The notes beneath the pieces were generated by a model. The model searched no databases, was not told the origin of the DNA, and worked only from the letters and a program-made list of their open reading frames with translations. Below, piece after piece: positions 12,456 to 64,000 of a stretch of 64,000 nucleotides of DNA. This DNA comes from a virus: positions 13,301-77,300 of IMG/VR virus record IMGVR_UViG_3300010397_000002. One strand, written 5' to 3'. The position numbers and the translations under genes were made by a program. Within the stretch, counting starts at the first letter, position 1, and each line of letters starts with the position of its first letter.

Positions 12456-12657
12456 AAGCTGTGCCTTTTAATATACAAATCCAACGAATCATTAATATCT
12501 CTTAACACTGTAACAAGAGACTTACTTTTTCCTTTTTTATATTCCTTCATCGCCTCCTCCATCCGCTCTTTACTGATGCGCTTAATAGGCACCTTCAACT
12601 TTGGCCGCATTTGGTTGTAGTCGAAAAGAGAAAATTGATGGTGAACTCGGATGAATT

Positions 12658-12951: not shown

Positions 12952-13820
12952 AGCTTTAATAAATCCTCACTCTTAATCGCATACACTCCAGCATGCTTAC
13001 AAGTCTCTGCGGCAGCTTTATTCGCCAGTTCAAGCGAATCATCAATCAGCATTCCGCAAGCATAACACAATGCAATGATAGCAGTTATAGTATCGCCTGC
13101 ACCGCATACATCAACCACACCAACTTCTTCTCCTGGTAAGTGATCTCTTCCTGAAGATGAATACAGATACAATCCTAACTCCCCAATTGTGACCACAAAA
13201 TAATTTATCTTAAGCGTGGTCCTGATGGAGTCTATATCTAATCCTTTAGCTTCGTGCTTATTGCATTTTACAATGTTTGCCCATTTATATTTATGAAAAT
13301 CTTTTTTAGCATCCACAATAACAGGGACATGATTGTCGTTACATAAGTTTATTATTATCTGCGCAATACTAAGGCTAATGGTGCCCTTATGATAATCGGA
13401 GAATATAACTGCATCCAGCGATGGTAACAATTTCTCGAAATCTTCTCTCCAATGGACATCATCATAAGTTATATCTTCTTGGTTGGCATCTTCTTCATCA
13501 ATACGGAGAAGATGATGGTTGGACGACATGATCCTTGTTTTAACAGGAGTTACACCTGCATGGACAAAGACTGTGTGTGCTTTTTTAGCAGATGAACAGC
13601 GTGTGAATAGATAAGCATCAACACCAAGATTCAATAAATTCAAAAGAACATTTCCGGCACCGCCTAGATAAGAAGTTTCTGATGTCTTCATTACCACAAC
13701 AACAGGAGCCTCTGGAGACACTCGTTCAACATCACCAAAGATGTATCGGTCTTCGATAAGATCACCGATGATGGCAATTTTAAGTTTGGATGCTTTTTCT
13801 AGGAGTTCTTGGATATTCAT
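12948..13820 (-). CDS. hldA: D-glycero-beta-D-manno-heptose-7-phosphate kinase (HldE/RfaE kinase domain)
   Basis: IGDLIEDRY..G.VERVSPEAPV, LGGAGNV, SDYHKG, DVCGAGDT (PfkB) motifs typical of RfaE1. Confidence 0.9.
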   Translation of the reverse strand: MNIQELLEKASKLKIAIIGDLIEDRYIFGDVERVSPEAPVVVVMKTSETSYLGGAGNVLLNLLNLGVDAYLFTRCSSAKKAHTVFVHAGVTPVKTRIMSSNHHLLRIDEEDANQEDITYDDVHWREDFEKLLPSLDAVIFSDYHKGTISLSIAQIIINLCNDNHVPVIVDAKKDFHKYKWANIVKCNKHEAKGLDIDSIRTTLKINYFVVTIGELGLYLYSSSGRDHLPGEEVGVVDVCGAGDTITAIIALCYACGMLIDDSLELANKAAAETCKHAGVYAIKSEDLLKL

Positions 13821-53690: not shown

Positions 53691-56600
53691 TTAGTAAGTA
53701 AAGCCAAGGCTATCCTCACGTTGTTTTTTCTTCTTTTTCTTTGCCTCATAATTCTGAACTCCGATACCAAAGAATGCAGGAACCATAGATGTTAAGAGTC
53801 CTGTCGGTCCTTCTGTTTTATAGATTGCAGAAATATCTTGTAGATACAACGGGATTACATTTTTCACAGCTTCTCCTTCAATTGTGACTTCATTCCCAAT
53901 AAGATCCTTTCCGGTCATTAAATTAACAATTGTGCCGGCTGTAGGTGAAAGTTTTGTCCTGGCAAATCGTGCGGCTACATCTCCTCTATTTTCGAATGGA
54001 AATTCTTTCCCATCAATTTTAATAATCTTTCCAGTACTTGTGCTCTTCCTTTCTGCTGTTGTAAGCTGTGTAATAAATCTCATCACTTGCGCGAATCCAG
54101 CCCAAATATCATATCGAGTGTTCCCAATCTTTATCTTTCCAAAGTCAGAGCTTCTTGGATCATGCTCAACATCTGCGCCGGCGGCACCGGCCAATGCCAC
54201 GATCAATACTCCAAGGCCAGCGTAAGTAATAACATTTTTTAATGCCATTATACTTACCTCTTTGGGCATTTTAGCGTAAGTAACAGGATTCAATAAATTT
54301 ACACGAGAAGCCAAATATCGTGGAGAGAAGAAAAAGCCATTCAATACAGTAGCCGCATTCTCAAGTGCTCCAAGATTCCCTCGGCCTGTGGCATTATTAA
54401 TGAATGATGCCCATGCTTTATAAGCTTCAGGATTAGATGTTGGCGTGATTCCCTGCTCCATTAGACGATCTGCTCCGTTAGCAAAAACATCTACTCGTAA
54501 TTTATTCAGGTATCCAGTATATGCACGTTCACTCCCCTTCACTAACCGGCCGATAACTGGAATTTTACTGGCAAAATTTGATATGAAATTCTCTTCTTTG
54601 GCCGTCAATTTTGTATTTGGTTCAGCCAAATACAATTTGCTTTGTTTCATTAAATCATATTCTGGAGTATCCCTTAACTTCAACAACCATTCATTAGCCT
54701 TCTTTTCAGAGAAAGCCTGTCTGAACATTTCTACAAAAGATTTTGCTCCGGCTTTTGGATGTGATGCTGATAGAAGAGCTCCTTGACGGAATGGTGCCGA
54801 CATGTCTATCGATGCTAAAAGTGATTTCGGGATGTTCCACACATCAACTGCAGTATCCCATACCTTCTCACTCATTGGTCGATTAATACGACGAACCTTC
54901 TCTTGCTCTATATCAAATTGAGCTTTTATTTTATCTCGCTCAAGTCTTAATGCTATAGCCTCTTTATCCAGATCAATTGGCTTCTTTTTTACCGGAGGAG
55001 CAAAGTCTTTATTCTTTATCCGCTCTTCGTATTTACCAATGCTCTTCTGAATGGATTTTTTATAGTTGGCCAGCTTCTTCTTATCAGCTACACCGAGATC
55101 TTGCTCAAGCTGTTTGTAAGTAGCCTTTAGTTTATCGCGAGTCTCACGCAATGATTTTAATTCAGCGGTTTCAGTAGTCTTTGACTTTTCTTTTGGCTCA
55201 AAGTCTTTCTCTTTAATCCTTCGATCATATTCATCAATCGTTCTTTGAACTGCACTGATGGCATTGCGTGTTTTTTGTTCATCAGATATAGATTGCTTGC
55301 CTTCAGTTTCAGCTAATATTTTTTTCAATTCATCTCTACGTTCTTTCAGCGCATTAGCCTCAGCATCATATTCAATACCCTTCTTTTTAGGAGTTTTAGC
55401 GCCTGTTTCGATCTGATTTTGTAGATCGCTTATTTGGTTGGTTAGGCGAGATTTAACGCTATCTAACGAGTTTTTCCACGCTTTATCGATTTCTTCCTGA
55501 TCTACAGGCAGGTCTTTCATGGCCTCCTTTATCTCACGCTGCATTCTGCGCTCTTGATCGGTAAGTTTGTCGCGTTGAAGCCCGCTGCGCAGTGGGCGTA
55601 ATTTATTTTGGACATCCTCAAGTGCTGAAATTAATTTGCCAACACGTTTTATCTCACGAATTTTTACATTAATATCCTCTTGAGATAGAGTTCTGGTCTC
55701 TCCATATTTTGTGACCGCATCACGCACTTCTCGAAGCGTAACTTCTGGCAGTGTTTCTTTAATAATGGAATGTAAATTCTCCGTCAGTTCATTAATGTTA
55801 TCAACTCCAGACTCTACAATTTGTCTGATGAGTGAATTAGGAATAATTAATTTTCCGTTTCTTATGGATGCAGATTTTATTTTACCTCCTTCTTCACTTG
55901 GTACCAATTTCTCAATACCAGGCTGAACCATATTCCTGAACTCATCCTCATTAAAATCATCGCCACGGTAATGCTCATTGATATAATCAATACCGGCCTG
56001 AATTGCAGTAGCTACATCAGCACCGGCCAGCACTGCTTTACGCATCACCTCAACTGATCCATTCCATACAGCCTCGCCAATTACTTGAGTGATGGAATTT
56101 AATTTGTTAGGATCATTCTTAACTTTTAAAGAATCGAAGAAACTATCAATCTTTTCTTTCTTCGCTTTAGCGGACTGAATTCTTTTTTCTTTTTGTGCTT
56201 GTAGGTCTTGGCGAATGTTTTGGAGATGTTCTTTAGATGATGACTTACTTGATGTTTCTTCTAACGCCTTAATCTTATCATTAGCTTCTTTTAATTGTTT
56301 ACCAAGTTCAGTGAATTTAGTCTCAACTTCTGGAGATATTTTACCATTGTTTACCTCCTTATATTTTTTGATTTGATAATCTGCCTTGTATCCAAAATCA
56401 GATGAACGATAAACTTCTTGTAATGCAGAAATGAATCGGCCACCGGACCTAGCTTTCTTGTCAAACTCATCAACCAATTCTGTTTGAAGATCAGTAAGTT
56501 CTTTTACTTGTTCTGGAGTTTTAGCTTGAGATAATTTTTCTCCGATATTATCAATAGCTTTTGCCCATACAAAAGCAGCGGCACCATCATCCACTTCACT

Positions 56601-58700
56601 CTTACGAACTGCTTCAACAGCATTTTCTACTCCGACATCTTTAATGAAATTGGATGCTGCTTTTTCAGCGGAAGCATGAGACTCTACTTCGTAGTTCAGT
56701 CCATGTTTCTCGATGGATGATTTTACTTGCTCATCAGTTGTTCCTTCGTAAGCACGATTGAGTAATGATTTTTTATTTACTTCTTTCCCTTGTGGGCCAT
56801 TGCCTCCATCTTCTCCTTTCCGTACTTTTTCATTCCTATTGAGGCCGCTACCGCGCCCGGATTCTTTACTCCCTTCTCTTTGCTGAGTTTGTCCTTCAGT
56901 TCCTTGAACCGTGTCCCCGATCCCAGCTTCGCTTTGTTGCTGTGTACTTTCATTTTGATTTAAATTACTTTGTTGCTTCTCACCTTCATTTTGGACTTCT
57001 CCTTCTTGGGTTTGTCCTTGATCATTCGTTGGTACAAACTCTTCTTGTCCGACACTTTCTCCGGAAGAACCTTGCCCTTGCTGGCTTGGTTCCACTCCTC
57101 CACGTTCACTCCTTTGGCCTCCAGTTCCTTCCTGTGGAGGTTGAAGTAGGCTCGTTGCTTGGCGCTCTTGTACGGCATTTTCCTCTAAATTAGATGTTGT
57201 TGGTAATTGATCAGTAATAGTATTTGAACCCTTTGGAGTTTCTTCAATAGATTTCTCCGTGGCAACCGTAGCCTCATCGGCTTGCTGAACTCTTGTATCG
57301 ATTATATCTGCTGCATGCTCAATGGATGGAGTGTCAGTAGATGTTATATTATCTGTTTGTTCTTTTACTAAATCAGGAGTTCGCTGCGCATTTTGTTCTG
57401 GTGATAAATTAATTTTAGAGGTAGCGCCTATTACACCACCTCCAATAATACCACCAACGGCACTTGTTGCTATCCTCCAAGCATCAGGGTGATATTCTGT
57501 GTCGGCACCTTTTGCAGCACCTACTTCTTCAAGTTCACCCTGAGCAACCTCAGTAATAGCTTCTGGCGCTGCACCGCGAACAAATCCTTTCGCAAAATTC
57601 TTTACTACACTTTCTGTAAGTTGTTTGCCAGCGGCCTTCTTAAACATACCAACCAAATTAATCTCACTGGCGGCATCTAATGTTCCGGCTAATACTGCAA
57701 GAGCCTGACCTTCGGCTGGTTTATCAAGACCTTGTTTAATAACCTCTTCACGGCTGATGCCTTTATCTTCAGCAATCAAATCAAGTTGGCGATCGTAAAC
57801 CGCAGATGACTCCGATATGATAGATCCAATCGGACCACCAACAATTGTGGTTGGGGCACGATATAAAGCTTGCCCAATCATATTTCCGGCAAAGTTTAAG
57901 AAGTCAGTAGCTCCATGCACATCTTGAAGGCCCTGAATTGTGCCATCTAATTTTTGATTGGCCTCAATATTTTGTTCTTGGATATTTTTTTCGAAACCAA
58001 TTCTTTGCTCTATATTTTTGACTTTGAATTTATCTTGCAATTGAGCGAATCCTTTTGCTCCAAGTTTCTCAGTTAAGAATATTTTAGCCCGTTCATTAAT
58101 TGATTTGCTGGATACATCACTTCCTTGTTTAAGATTCCATTCTGTGAAATCATCAATTGAAGTTCCTTTGGGAAGATTTTTTGCAAATTCATCACCACCA
58201 AAAGCATTCAGATCACTCCGCTTATCATATAAGTCTCCGAATTCTCCTTTGCTCATACGAAGACGTTGAGCATAATATTCTTTAGGTAGTTGGTCGGCCA
58301 GTCCACTATGAATTGTTTTAACTAAATCCTCGACAATTGGGATCTTAAATAATTCAGGATTCTCTTTAGTAACAAATTGCTTTGTCGCTCTGCGCTGGCT
58401 TTCTTCGAATTGTTCTTGTTGAGGAGTTTTAGGAACGACAGCTTTGGCTAAAATTTGTTTTTGCTCATCGCTTAACTGAATATTTGGCGTATTCTTTCCA
58501 GAAGGCTCTCCAAGACCTTCTGAGCCGCTCGAAGAAACTGATAGGTCTTCTTGATCTTTTTTTTTTACAGGCTTAGATGGAATACCATCTGTTGGAGGAG
58601 TCCATCCTTGACTTTGCTCAACATGATTATCTTCTGCCGGTATTGTGCTGGCATTAATACCATCTACTGGAGGAGTCCATCCTTTTACCTGCTTTCCCAT
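53691..58700 (-). CDS. Giant internal virion/DNA-ejection protein
   Basis: 1669 aa with Gly/Ala-rich hydrophobic helices, long coiled coils, and an LPD38-like C-terminus (SP....NL.TGKD..G; FGIGVQ.Y). Confidence 0.75.
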   Translation of the reverse strand: MGKQVKGWTPPVDGINASTIPAEDNHVEQSQGWTPPTDGIPSKPVKKKDQEDLSVSSSGSEGLGEPSGKNTPNIQLSDEQKQILAKAVVPKTPQQEQFEESQRRATKQFVTKENPELFKIPIVEDLVKTIHSGLADQLPKEYYAQRLRMSKGEFGDLYDKRSDLNAFGGDEFAKNLPKGTSIDDFTEWNLKQGSDVSSKSINERAKIFLTEKLGAKGFAQLQDKFKVKNIEQRIGFEKNIQEQNIEANQKLDGTIQGLQDVHGATDFLNFAGNMIGQALYRAPTTIVGGPIGSIISESSAVYDRQLDLIAEDKGISREEVIKQGLDKPAEGQALAVLAGTLDAASEINLVGMFKKAAGKQLTESVVKNFAKGFVRGAAPEAITEVAQGELEEVGAAKGADTEYHPDAWRIATSAVGGIIGGGVIGATSKINLSPEQNAQRTPDLVKEQTDNITSTDTPSIEHAADIIDTRVQQADEATVATEKSIEETPKGSNTITDQLPTTSNLEENAVQERQATSLLQPPQEGTGGQRSERGGVEPSQQGQGSSGESVGQEEFVPTNDQGQTQEGEVQNEGEKQQSNLNQNESTQQQSEAGIGDTVQGTEGQTQQREGSKESGRGSGLNRNEKVRKGEDGGNGPQGKEVNKKSLLNRAYEGTTDEQVKSSIEKHGLNYEVESHASAEKAASNFIKDVGVENAVEAVRKSEVDDGAAAFVWAKAIDNIGEKLSQAKTPEQVKELTDLQTELVDEFDKKARSGGRFISALQEVYRSSDFGYKADYQIKKYKEVNNGKISPEVETKFTELGKQLKEANDKIKALEETSSKSSSKEHLQNIRQDLQAQKEKRIQSAKAKKEKIDSFFDSLKVKNDPNKLNSITQVIGEAVWNGSVEVMRKAVLAGADVATAIQAGIDYINEHYRGDDFNEDEFRNMVQPGIEKLVPSEEGGKIKSASIRNGKLIIPNSLIRQIVESGVDNINELTENLHSIIKETLPEVTLREVRDAVTKYGETRTLSQEDINVKIREIKRVGKLISALEDVQNKLRPLRSGLQRDKLTDQERRMQREIKEAMKDLPVDQEEIDKAWKNSLDSVKSRLTNQISDLQNQIETGAKTPKKKGIEYDAEANALKERRDELKKILAETEGKQSISDEQKTRNAISAVQRTIDEYDRRIKEKDFEPKEKSKTTETAELKSLRETRDKLKATYKQLEQDLGVADKKKLANYKKSIQKSIGKYEERIKNKDFAPPVKKKPIDLDKEAIALRLERDKIKAQFDIEQEKVRRINRPMSEKVWDTAVDVWNIPKSLLASIDMSAPFRQGALLSASHPKAGAKSFVEMFRQAFSEKKANEWLLKLRDTPEYDLMKQSKLYLAEPNTKLTAKEENFISNFASKIPVIGRLVKGSERAYTGYLNKLRVDVFANGADRLMEQGITPTSNPEAYKAWASFINNATGRGNLGALENAATVLNGFFFSPRYLASRVNLLNPVTYAKMPKEVSIMALKNVITYAGLGVLIVALAGAAGADVEHDPRSSDFGKIKIGNTRYDIWAGFAQVMRFITQLTTAERKSTSTGKIIKIDGKEFPFENRGDVAARFARTKLSPTAGTIVNLMTGKDLIGNEVTIEGEAVKNVIPLYLQDISAIYKTEGPTGLLTSMVPAFFGIGVQNYEAKKKKKKQREDSLGFTY
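56777..56953 (-). CDS. Nested small basic protein 2 (alternative frame)
   Basis: MKVHSNKAKLGSGTRFKELKDKLSKEKGVKNPGAVAASIGMKKYGKEKMEAMAHKGKK*, 58 aa, preceded by TAAATCAAA. Confidence 0.7.
   Translation of the reverse strand: MKVHSNKAKLGSGTRFKELKDKLSKEKGVKNPGAVAASIGMKKYGKEKMEAMAHKGKK
56960..57178 (-). CDS. Nested small basic protein 1 (alternative frame)
   Basis: MPYKSAKQRAYF...EEWNQASKGKVLPEKV, preceded by AGAGGAAA. Confidence 0.7.
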   Translation of the reverse strand: MPYKSAKQRAYFNLHRKELEAKGVNVEEWNQASKGKVLPEKVSDKKSLYQRMIKDKPKKEKSKMKVRSNKVI

Positions 58701-61197: not shown

Positions 61198-61668
61198 TTA
61201 AGATGTTAATAAATCCTTTACTTTAATCTGTTCTATTATCTTATCGATGTAAGGATTGTGTCTTTTCTCGATTATCCTTTCTTCGATCTGATCAACATTT
61301 TCTCCATCAACACAAGCATGTACCGTGGTCCATACAACATCTGTATGGCAAAATAACAATCTCCTTGTCCCCGGTTTGGTAATACCAGTATGAGGAGCCG
61401 TGATTAATACCTCTTCCTCCTCAGTCATTACCGACACTGTTCCTTTTGATATTATAAAAGGATGTTCAGTATTGTGTATTTTAGAGACAATACAAGATCC
61501 GGCTGGCATGTAAATCTCTCTAATGTACAATCCTGGAGTAAATATATGCTTCAATGGAGGATTTATTGATGAATCACTTGATTTCATTAACGCCTCCATT
61601 TGATCCAATGTGTCATGGAAGTCTGCTATCTTATTAACCTCTAATGTGATGTTTTCTATAAGTTCCAT
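61198..61668 (-). CDS. Cupin-fold phage protein
   Basis: H.FTPGLYIRE..MPAG..IVSKIH..EH...ISKG...PGT.R...WTTVH. Confidence 0.75.
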   Translation of the reverse strand: MELIENITLEVNKIADFHDTLDQMEALMKSSDSSINPPLKHIFTPGLYIREIYMPAGSCIVSKIHNTEHPFIISKGTVSVMTEEEEVLITAPHTGITKPGTRRLLFCHTDVVWTTVHACVDGENVDQIEERIIEKRHNPYIDKIIEQIKVKDLLTS

Positions 61669-61677
61669 GTCACGAAT

Positions 61678-64000
61678 TTAAGCATTTATTGGCGACTCGA
61701 TATAACCTGCCATTGAGGAATGTAATAATGTCAAATAAACAACGTCCGGATCAAGCTTGAGCAATACTTGGATAGCTTTTGACCTCACCTTATTACCATT
61801 AACAATCGGGTCTAAAATATTGGGAGTATTAATATCTCCTTTTATCGCTGCCCAATAAGTATCTTCTCTTGGCTCAAATTGATCAAGCGTTATCCTGCTT
61901 TGAATTAATGGGCTCAACCCGCGATATTCTGATAAAATACGCTCCACAGACCATTTATTTGTGGCTAAAATTGTGATAGTCTGCCAATGTTTAACATCAA
62001 AATACTCGCTATTAAACACAGGTTCTACCTTAGAATCATATTTGGTACCATAAAAAGTATTGTAGGTGCTGGATGTTTCGTGCAAATACAATAATCCTCC
62101 CTTCATGCTTACCAATTGGTTGTTCATTCTGCCAAACATCTCGGGTTCGTAGCTATGAATTGATTTCCATCCAGTATCCTTTTCACTGAACATAGATCCT
62201 TTGTATGTATCATAGTTGCGGAAGGTAGACGGTAAGGAACTATGGTTTATAAACGTCACCAACTCATCGTTAAATGAATCAAAAGAACTGATAACAAGCG
62301 GAGGAGTGCTGGTTAAATATTTTGTAATCAAAAGATTGCTTATCTCGCGATACCAATTCCTCATTTTATAGTCAGAAATGGCAGTTAATCCGTCTCGGCC
62401 ATATCTAACCCACGATCCTTTAATGGCATTCCACCAGTAAACACGGCCAGCGTATAAAGAAACGCTCTCAGGATTTAAAGTTCCTTGTGATCCCAGAAGG
62501 GTATTATAGCTTCCTAAAACCTGATTACTGAGACTTACCTGAGTATTGCCGCCGAGATCTTCAATGGTAGTCCGGTTAACATAAATGCTCCATGCTTCAC
62601 GTTCGCCTATGGCCAGCAATATACTCCCAACACTTTCTACTTGTGCATTCGCGGTATTTACAAGGTTTCTGATCCTTCCATATTCTGACGGATAAATAAA
62701 CTGGTCTGCTGCGCGATACCGATTAAGCTGGTTAATTAAAGATTGCTCAATAATTTTACCTCCAAATCTACACTGAGTGGTGAAGAAAATAACTGGAGGA
62801 ATGTCTCTATAAGAAACTGTTGCCCTGCCGTTATACCTATCCCAATAATCGTAATTGAAATTAGGATCTGGATTCATGCTAATAGCTGTTGTCCCTTTTA
62901 TTGTTCCTCCTCCATATCCAGCAAGTGTATCTCGATAAATATCTCGCCCAAAAGCCAGCACATCGGCATAATAAAAAGGAAGCTTATTGAAGATATGCCA
63001 CGGACCAACATCTGTTCCGGTTACCGAGGTGTTATCTACATAAGTCCAGTCCCTTTTTGAGAAATTTCTACTTGCATGACCAGGGAACAGTATCGGATAA
63101 ACTTCTCCTGTTTCATATAATATAGCATCATTCTCATTTGGCACTTTAGGTGTATAAACCTCAATCTGAAAATCAGATGGACCGGTAGATGTAGTATCTG
63201 GCAACCATAATAAATCTTTTGGTCTTTCAATCAGAAGGCCTTTACCCGTGAATGCTATAATAGGAACGTCATAAGTTTTTTTATCTGCCGTCAGGGGAGT
63301 TGCTACAGCACTTCCTAAAAATCTTACTCGATCGCCATTTCTGAAATTGTAATAAAGTTTGTTGATCGTTGGTTGATCCTGTGTGGCAGAAATTTTAGCC
63401 GCATTGTACCAATTATTAATATCGATCATTATTCGGCTACAGTCGGATAGGGTCGTTGTATTTGTAACCTTATAAATCTCAGCCGTCAAATCTCCTTTTA
63501 TAGGATTGTGACGGAGGGTTTCATTTAAACTTTTATTTGATAAAGCAAGTTCTGGAGCCCCACCCGTATATTTCGTTATTGTAGTGGCGAACGTTTCATT
63601 ATTTCTTAAAAAATTATTGAATTGATCTTTCTTCGCGCTTGCATTCCTGGCATTAATCTCATTTTGAATAGCCTGCTTTGTAAAGTCTGCTGCCTCATAG
63701 CTTGATACAGTTTTGCTATTGGCAAAATGATCTCGAATGACTTGTTTTACATTATCTGGAATAGATATTCTATCTAGAATTACATCTACGGAATCAATTA
63801 ACGGAATGAATTGATTCACAATACCAAGCATAAACATATCAATAGTCAATGCGTTAGTTCGCATGATTTGATAAGCAACGGCCCAATCTGGCGGCTTTAC
63901 TGCGGCATCTATTTTAAAATTAAAAGCAAGAATTCTTTGGATAGCAACATCTGTAGCTGTGAACTGAAATACATCTGTTGTAACACCTAAGCTTCTCCAT
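61678..64000 (-). CDS. Tail stabilization/nozzle protein (5' partial)
   Basis: Frame is open to the window edge (PPDWAVAYQIMRT). G..NPES...G..Y......G...R...DG...IS...M..W beta-propeller motif. Confidence 0.75.
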   Translation of the reverse strand, partial: WRSLGVTTDVFQFTATDVAIQRILAFNFKIDAAVKPPDWAVAYQIMRTNALTIDMFMLGIVNQFIPLIDSVDVILDRISIPDNVKQVIRDHFANSKTVSSYEAADFTKQAIQNEINARNASAKKDQFNNFLRNNETFATTITKYTGGAPELALSNKSLNETLRHNPIKGDLTAEIYKVTNTTTLSDCSRIMIDINNWYNAAKISATQDQPTINKLYYNFRNGDRVRFLGSAVATPLTADKKTYDVPIIAFTGKGLLIERPKDLLWLPDTTSTGPSDFQIEVYTPKVPNENDAILYETGEVYPILFPGHASRNFSKRDWTYVDNTSVTGTDVGPWHIFNKLPFYYADVLAFGRDIYRDTLAGYGGGTIKGTTAISMNPDPNFNYDYWDRYNGRATVSYRDIPPVIFFTTQCRFGGKIIEQSLINQLNRYRAADQFIYPSEYGRIRNLVNTANAQVESVGSILLAIGEREAWSIYVNRTTIEDLGGNTQVSLSNQVLGSYNTLLGSQGTLNPESVSLYAGRVYWWNAIKGSWVRYGRDGLTAISDYKMRNWYREISNLLITKYLTSTPPLVISSFDSFNDELVTFINHSSLPSTFRNYDTYKGSMFSEKDTGWKSIHSYEPEMFGRMNNQLVSMKGGLLYLHETSSTYNTFYGTKYDSKVEPVFNSEYFDVKHWQTITILATNKWSVERILSEYRGLSPLIQSRITLDQFEPREDTYWAAIKGDINTPNILDPIVNGNKVRSKAIQVLLKLDPDVVYLTLLHSSMAGYIESPINA

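Follow-up and report, generated by a model that had tools for sequence, protein, structure and literature searches.

Introduction

In phiX174 of the Microviridae, genes B (within A), E (within D), and K are same-strand, out-of-frame genes that are translated from internal starts on one mRNA, and the embedded genes of this family are taken to be de novo overprints in a tiny, size-constrained genome. Here we describe an arrangement that can be compared with these genes in IMG/VR record IMGVR_UViG_3300010397_000002, a 77.3-kb uncultivated virus record with direct terminal repeats that is rated complete. The window that we analyzed, a 64,000-nt stretch covering positions 13,301 to 77,300 of the record, contains a giant virion-module gene with two small genes nested in one of its linkers. 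We label these small genes pepA and pepB and use pepC for a third; all three labels stand for unnamed small-gene families. As in phiX174, pepA and pepB are out of frame with a longer gene on the same strand and are embedded in it, and they probably have internal starts as well. Unlike in phiX174, the embedded genes belong to old, widespread families, the genome is 77 kb long, and the newer reading is likely that of the long gene.

The Rz/Rz1 spanin pairs of lambda offer a second comparison, as they are known in embedded, overlapped, and separated architectures, and gene callers usually miss the embedded partner (PMC6139136). The survey of spanins contains no family that mixes embedded with separated members (PMC6139136). 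As with Rz/Rz1, a larger phage gene encloses the whole of a small same-strand gene in its +1 frame, and pairs of this kind also occur separated; both frames are functional in Rz/Rz1, and both are kept by selection in pepA, pepB, and the giant gene. Unlike Rz/Rz1, pepA and pepB are two genes in tandem, their host is a giant virion-module gene, and the overlap falls within a linker that is presumed to be disordered. In addition, the pepA family alone has separated, embedded, and in-frame-fused forms, and this mix makes the direction of overprinting readable, with the small gene as the older reading and that of the host gene as the newer one. We rejected the possibility that pepA and pepB form a two-component spanin: neither protein has a cysteine (so no lipobox is possible) or a hydrophobic stretch, and the host gene lies in the virion module, not in a lysis cassette.

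A third comparison is with the polyvalent proteins of Iyer et al. (2017, PMC5512222), which are giant, mosaic, multi-domain proteins encoded with virion genes; packaging into the virion followed by injection has been proposed for them. They are recognized by several disparate domains or by LPD marker domains in one virion-associated polypeptide. A likeness is seen outside the window: the giants with nested pepA in loci L031 (LPD1, ddrB-ParB) and L069 (ART-PolyVal) carry hallmark domains, and larger proteins fused to pepA carry SNF2, NUDIX, and SLT domains. The window giant itself has no recognizable domain: sequence searches of Pfam, PHROG, and PDB returned no match, no significant domain, and no solved structure for it. 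We found no mention of genes nested in linkers in the available part of PMC5512222; our literature searches likewise identified no published account of nested genes in giant or polyvalent phage genes, although this is weak evidence given the limited library.

Selection on both reading frames

We consider it highly probable that the overlapped segment is truly dual-coding, with two pre-existing small genes lying in the inter-domain linker of the giant gene and being made as separate proteins. An earlier reading of this DNA, made from the letters alone (hereafter, the sequence-only reading), had described three open reading frames (ORFs) and a TAA-ATCAAA-ATG spacer between the two small ones; the layout, coordinates, and spacer are all present in the sequence (Table 1). 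Across codons 508-642 of the giant gene, Q, E, and G together account for 51% of residues vs 21% in the remainder of the giant protein, and hydrophobic residues account for 12.7% vs 36.3%. The sequence-only reading had attributed this odd linker composition to the shifted frame of the small genes, and the attribution holds, based on both the composition itself and a comparison with the same frame of free-standing copies.

Table 1. Coordinates of the nested genes, their host gene, and neighboring features within the 64,000-nt window
Feature	Coordinates	Strand	Description
Giant virion-module gene, host of both small genes	53691..58700 (58700 to 53691)	minus	1669-codon ORF reading through pepA and pepB
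Giant linker, codons 508-642	56775..57179	minus	Q/E/G-rich, hydrophobic-poor; corresponds to the small genes read one base out of phase
pepA	56960..57178 (57178 to 56960)	minus	72 codons plus stop; small basic protein, begins MPYKSAKQRAYF; +1 frame of giant gene, codons 508-581
pepB	56777..56953 (56953 to 56777)	minus	58 codons plus stop; small basic protein; frame of pepA (+1 of giant gene), codons 583-642
Spacer ATCAAA	56954..56959	minus	6 bases from pepA stop TAA to pepB ATG; read from sequence; length compatible with coupling
Presumed pepA translation-initiation region	57179..57208	minus	inside giant coding sequence; A-rich, GAGG three bases before ATG
Tail-fibre PHROG match	61198..61668		structural-module neighbor of giant gene
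Virion structural protein match	61678..63864		structural-module neighbor of giant gene

We recoded the segment by keeping both window peptides fixed and drawing synonymous codons from the phage's own usage. The giant frame was open in none of the 100,000 draws; the recoded segments had ~17 stops in this frame on average and a minimum of 6, vs 0 observed. The recodings close the giant frame because K, E, N, D, S, and R, whose codons start with AA, GA, or AG, are abundant in both peptides; when the preceding codon ends in T, a stop arises in the giant frame. The dual reading works only because the codons of the small genes avoid a third-position T before codons that start with AA, AG, or GA, and the openness of the small genes in the giant frame is far beyond chance.

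For comparison among loci, we assembled a nested set consisting of the window and 25 loci from the best 80 of at least 285 pepA loci, which were fetched via conserved pepA motifs; all 26 sequences are unique. The giant frame has 0 stops in all 26 nested pepA copies, in the same relative frame, and free-standing pepA copies have a median of 5 stops in the equivalent frame over their first 40 codons, with only 1 of 44 lacking a stop. These counts bear on the alternative that the 1669-codon ORF is not one gene: two small genes would separate an N-terminal from a C-terminal gene, and the connecting frame would be open by accident or because of an assembly error. Such an arrangement has parallels elsewhere, as pepA stands between or after large genes in other contigs and the C-terminal module is a separate gene in L003 and L012. 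However, it is extremely improbable given that no synonymous recoding leaves the frame open and that the same relative frame is free of stops in each of the 26 independent assemblies. Full-length homologs of the window giant are found in L002 (71% identity) and L001, and L001, L002, and L052 all keep a continuous frame despite the divergence of the flanking protein from that of the window (43-46% for L001 and L052, 29% for L002). An assembly error would also require two compensating indels, and each small ORF has its own stop.

Within the nested set, the pepA frame is conserved as a gene. The pepA ATG is exactly in place in 25 of the 26 copies, and all 26 have an ORF of 46-74 aa with a basic tail as in free-standing copies. 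Entropy among the nested copies is 0.62/0.41/0.90 at pepA codon positions 1/2/3, such that variability follows the pepA codon phase; for the two frames, dN/dS is 0.22/1.25 (pepA) and 0.39/0.19 (giant). A post-embedding test was based on pairs within lineages already sharing the embedded layout, so that the divergence of each pair postdates embedding. In these pairs, the first, second, and third positions of pepA codons had 69, 38, and 114 differences, respectively (chi-square p=2.5e-9), pepA dN/dS was 0.03-0.25, and aa identity was 68-97% in the pepA frame vs 42-90% in the giant frame. When the window is aligned to L001 and L002 over pepA, identity is 0.50 and 0.50, respectively, in the giant frame and 0.85 and 0.75 in the pepA frame. 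The least variable site is the second pepA position, which is the third codon position of the giant gene; this is the opposite of the pattern expected from selection on the giant frame only. For pepB, which was not used for retrieval, dN/dS is 0.39/1.08 in its own frame (ratio 0.36) and 0.56/0.29 in the giant frame. Frame-specific dN/dS had been suggested as a check in the sequence-only reading, and for both small genes it points to selection on the nested frames. The conservation of the small frames, combined with a stop-free giant frame, shows that both are kept by selection, and purifying selection on the cassette since embedding is supported.

Several observations weigh against the dual-coding reading. 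Overlap of two coding frames biases estimates of dN/dS, and the dS values here are close to saturation; in addition, the 26 nested loci are not phylogenetically independent. Because retrieval was based on pepA motifs, decayed nested copies would be missed and pepA conservation is somewhat inflated, a bias from which pepB is free. Among the listed sequencing runs that we checked for the phage, no RNA run contained it; the only run listed for it was that of a soil metagenome, which is probably its source. Using tblastn and blastn against 50,697 GenBank phage records, we obtained no match to pepA or pepB and no cultured carrier. Among 80 phages chosen by the C-terminal module of the giant alone (alignment A3), pepA and pepB occur only in three close relatives, and so they are not obligate partners of this giant. 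With regard to function, neither peptide matched Pfam or PHROG, and Foldseek against PDB and a wide structure search with the AlphaFold2 models of both peptides returned nothing above background; the best fold-search score, Z=4.2 for pepB, is within the range expected of small helical models. The functional proposal for pepA and pepB presented below draws entirely on their context.

The RNA result and a motif-based retrieval that favors well-kept copies would both be consistent with a relic cassette, in which the small genes lost their translation once the giant gene had engulfed them, such that their conservation reflects recent capture or constraint on the linker; the clear constraint that keeps the giant frame open fits this explanation as well. 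However, post-embedding substitutions gather on third pepA positions and are fewest on second pepA positions, the ATG is retained, and ORF lengths match those of free-standing copies. In addition, the pepB ratio was obtained from sequences retrieved regardless of pepB itself, and the giant-frame identity of the window to L001 and L002 over pepA is below the giant average of 57-71%. We therefore regard a relic cassette as very unlikely.

Families and predicted structures of pepA and pepB

The sequence-only reading had likened both peptides to small basic phage proteins encoded by stand-alone genes, and each does belong to a widespread family whose members are usually free-standing genes. The homolog search that it suggested for both peptides was productive: among metagenome-predicted proteins, we identified 15 small called proteins as homologs of pepA (E down to 6e-14) and 21 matches to pepB (E down to 1e-15). 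Within IMG/VR, the viral contigs with pepA number at least 285, and those with pepB at least 487. A profile search with pepA against 1.84 billion representatives identified 694 clusters at 50% identity (E<=1e-3), and a scan of species genomes detected pepA on contigs of metagenome-assembled genomes (MAGs) only, with zero isolates. When we looked up individual copies in a 15-billion-protein collection, 0 of 10 nested copies (8 pepA, window pepB among them) were present vs 10 of 10 free-standing copies. If the nested copies are expressed, they would represent conserved phage genes that are systematically missed by annotation.

In the pepA family (alignment A1), members have an MPYKS N-terminus, a conserved F-N, G-V-x-V-x-E-W-N, A-S-K core, and a basic tail. 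Both families align cleanly. The window pepA agrees with its family at all 17 invariant columns and is 49-74% identical to the 15 other members in the alignment. The pepB family (alignment A2) has a conserved F16, an A-x-A-A-x-x-G core, a K-Y-G motif, and a basic C-terminus; the window pepB agrees at 8 of 8 invariant columns and aligns with 56-78% identity to members. AlphaFold2 predicted a core of three short helices in residues 1-38 of pepA (pLDDT 86-95 over residues 1-40) and three helices in pepB (pLDDT ~80).

A language-model search of the ESM Atlas returned unnamed viral clusters, and the nearest named families were DUF3008 (0.80) and DUF6496 (0.77), albeit in clusters in which the family is present in just 15% of the members. 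DUF3008 (PF11450) and DUF6496 (PF20106) are Pfam families of small phage and bacterial proteins with no assigned function; their likeness to pepA and pepB consists of small size, basic character, and a similar style of N-terminal motif. We compared the families with HMMs at E<=1 for the window peptides and at E<=10 for the family alignments and the whole phage genome. Assignment of pepA to PF11450 was rejected, as there was no HMM match even at E<=10. Assignment of pepB to PF20106 was also rejected for lack of an HMM match; the sole match in the phage genome scored 13 bits and lies elsewhere (about window 12518-12580). We therefore treat DUF3008 and DUF6496 as leads, not as memberships.

The last 11 codons of the window pepA (tail ...KMKVRSNKVI, 56960-56995, minus strand) resemble a diverged tandem copy of the spacer and the start of pepB (MKVHSNKAK, 56924-56959, minus strand). 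Over the full stretch, 22 of 36 nt are identical between the two segments; by hand count, 21 of the first 28 nt are. In L002, pepA ends earlier, and the tail of the window pepA aligns to the start of the L002 pepB, with no change of frame. The window pepA thus seems to owe its extra length to a short duplication at the junction.

Recurrence of nesting

Nesting of pepA was identified in 25 of 80 other loci, all of which are uncultivated viral contigs, and the relative frame was the same throughout. The open frames around nested pepA span 427-4407 codons, although three of these spans, the shortest included, run off the contig; pepA starts at codon 49 to 2270 of the open span. The giants with nested pepA are mosaic relatives of each other, and L031 has modules in common with this set; the exception is L069, which has no common module. 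pepB is nested in L001, L002, L026, and L052, and its order and spacing relative to pepA vary. The remaining 55 pepA loci are free-standing or fused in frame. At ~14 of the free-standing loci, the pepA ATG follows the end of a long ORF (879-2664 codons) at a distance of 4-22 nt. Based on its nested and free-standing loci, one family has both the "separated" and the "embedded" layouts.

Two of the giants have domain content that stands out. The 4407-codon giant of L031 (L031:1190-14410) has sigma-70 regions 2 and 4 beside its LPD1 and ddrB-ParB domains; a polyvalent protein presumably delivered with the virion would thus include a sigma-factor module. The giant of L026 (L026:6002-16138; at least 3379 codons, running off the end of the locus) contains GGACT and helicase domains. 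Its GGACT (gamma-glutamyl cyclotransferase-like) domain, at residues 568-665, lies between a nested pepB (from 506) and a nested pepA (from 666), such that the two linkers around one enzymatic domain are both sites of nested genes.

In three other phages with the C-terminal module of the window giant, the corresponding site of the giant gene is occupied by a nested gene of a third kind, pepC. pepC begins MPFQSEAQRRLLWMKHPE (MPFQSEAQRR) and is nested in the +1 frame at L189:8838-8999, L192:8874-9047, and L210:8883-9050. It occurs in at least 301 viral contigs; in 80 that we sampled (L266-L345), pepC is nested in 27 (with the same +1 relation), free-standing in 42, and fused in frame in 11. Some of the giants that nest pepC have the C-terminal module of the window giant. 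The N-terminal motif MP[YF][KQ]S..Q is common to pepA and pepC, and a profile-profile comparison of the two was borderline (probability 50%, E=1.7e-4). Together, pepA, pepB, and pepC represent three unnamed small-protein families that are tied here to giant virion or polyvalent proteins.

N-terminal position of pepA and origin of the embedding

The pepA domain is also part of longer proteins, of which there were 133 at E<=0.001; we examined the best 120 (214-1554 aa; P0037-P0156). In 114 of these 120 proteins, the pepA domain starts at residue <=5. Other domains in the pepA-fused proteins include NUDIX, ferritin-like, SNF2 helicase, SET, SLT, and Hva1_TUDOR. Because pepA occurs in frame almost always at the extreme N-terminus, it seems to need a free N-terminus, and such a need would explain why it has its own start in another frame rather than being an internal domain. 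As a strict N-terminal module on enzyme-bearing proteins, pepA could provide a testable handle on the handling of cargo proteins. The in-frame pepA fusions at L042, L043, L060, and L063 contained no informative domain, with only a sub-threshold Zn_peptidase_2 match in L043. Many pepA-fused proteins have a C-terminal DUF6321 (PF19846), resulting in a layout of N-cap, cargo, and C-cap; we did not find this layout described in the literature searched, and a search for DUF6321 gave no paper.

The giants of L012, in which pepA is nested, and L004, in which pepA follows the stop, are collinear. Between homologous flanks, the stretch of the L012 giant that is overlapped by pepA replaces an ordinary linker of similar length. 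We considered embedding by read-through or by a lost stop of the giant; the comparison of L012 with L004 does not support it and shows a linker that was replaced instead. Based on this alignment, the cassette is one that was placed into the linker, at least in the L012 lineage. The small genes are likely older, with the linker frame of the giant as the newer overprint. The sequence-only reading had proposed that a two-gene cassette was absorbed into the giant gene; this stands insofar as the cassette appears to predate the giant's reading, but in the one lineage in which the event can be compared, it took the form of linker replacement, not read-through. Its description of the small genes as overprinted likely reverses their history. 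The locus would offer a natural example of overprinting with a clearly readable direction, in which a long gene gained a new reading of old, widespread small genes under a very strict codon constraint.

Start sites and proposed expression

We predicted RNA folding from -30 to +21 (51 nt) around each start; the folding energy was -2.1 kcal/mol for pepA and 0.0 kcal/mol for pepB, and the mean for the giant gene was -6.8 kcal/mol. Ranked by lack of structure, the pepA starts of the 26 nested loci have a median percentile of 92 (Wilcoxon p=6e-8). The A content of the 20 bases that precede nested pepA is mostly 50-75% vs 26-45% in the giants. No TAnnTTTG box of the Bacteroidota type occurs within the giant gene, and so translation from the giant's own mRNA is the simplest reading. 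From the evidence of selection, the retained ATG and stop, and the unstructured, A-rich starts, we infer that pepA and pepB are expressed. Initiation of translation that is independent of a Shine-Dalgarno sequence is known from Bacteroidota. The contig of a close relative was binned with a Cyclobacteriaceae MAG, which is a weak hint at the host and would fit Shine-Dalgarno-independent initiation.

According to the dual-coding reading, the giant gene would be translated straight through pepA and pepB, with the DNA read as a Q/E/G-rich and presumably disordered linker, and the basic, helical proteins of 72 and 58 aa would be made separately from the same late mRNA. Ribosomes may start internally at the pepA ATG, which lies in an unstructured, A-rich stretch; pepB, which starts 6 nt after the pepA stop, would probably be translated by coupling. 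By keeping its own start codon, pepA would retain a free N-terminus, and its function would be preserved.

A different form of expression would be recoding, either by a -1 shift from pepA into the giant frame, which would yield a pepA-tagged C-terminal part, or by a +1 shift from the giant frame that ends at the pepA stop. Two features fit recoding: elsewhere, many larger proteins have pepA as their N-terminal domain in frame, and the Lys-rich tails are A-rich. However, an in-frame X_XXY_YYZ heptamer is present in 8 of 26 nested vs 7 of 41 free-standing copies and in none of the window sequence, where the longest A run in pepA is 4. Free-standing copies have the same basic tails with no frame to shift into. 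For the +1 shift, 24 of 26 nested loci have a pepA-frame stop within the 0-13 codons before the ATG, so that hardly any space is left in which ribosomes could shift into pepA; conservation extends to the ATG itself. Recoding is therefore highly improbable, and we favor internal initiation within a dual-coding segment.

The weakest step in this proposal concerns function: pepA and pepB may be small basic partners of virion-packaged giants of the polyvalent type, and they might serve as packaging or targeting modules or bind nucleic acid. The sequence-only reading had suggested that they are possibly internal DNA-binding virion proteins. A more general hypothesis, which we regard as doubtful, is that the disordered linkers of giant, injected polyvalent proteins are a regular home of hidden small genes, with pepB as a further case and with pepA and pepC as obligate free-N-terminus modules that come in three interchangeable forms. 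These forms would be a mini-protein encoded beside the giant gene, a mini-protein nested in the giant gene, and the first domain of a single-enzyme cargo protein. In such a scheme, pepA and pepC could act, for example, as tags for loading cargo into the capsid or for guiding its passage through the portal. If this hypothesis is true, nesting would make the level of the tag protein depend on the mRNA of the giant.

The giant gene and further observations

The neighbors of the giant gene include matches to structural-module proteins (Table 1). Based on the position of the gene and on its relatives, the window giant may be an "ejection protein," as it was called in the sequence-only reading. Its C-terminal part had one match in the GenBank phage records searched, annotated as "hypothetical protein."

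We scanned the 26 giants for further conserved alternative-frame ORFs and identified only pepA and pepB; other clusters consisted of close DNA relatives. In the giants, ATG-started alternative-frame ORFs were distributed between the +1 and +2 frames as 113 vs 4 (>=35 codons) and 308 vs 20 (>=40 codons). A general codon-bias effect may be the reason that nested genes are always in the +1 frame.

Free-standing pepB is often found ~2 kb upstream of a portal gene (phrog_1216), as in L101, L102, L109, L120-L123, L132, and L133. The pepB of L091 overlaps a 1223-codon ORF at its start, and this ORF has matches to portal and endolysin proteins. In L144, pepB is the C-terminal domain of a protein encoded in a 518-codon open frame, just upstream of a portal gene.

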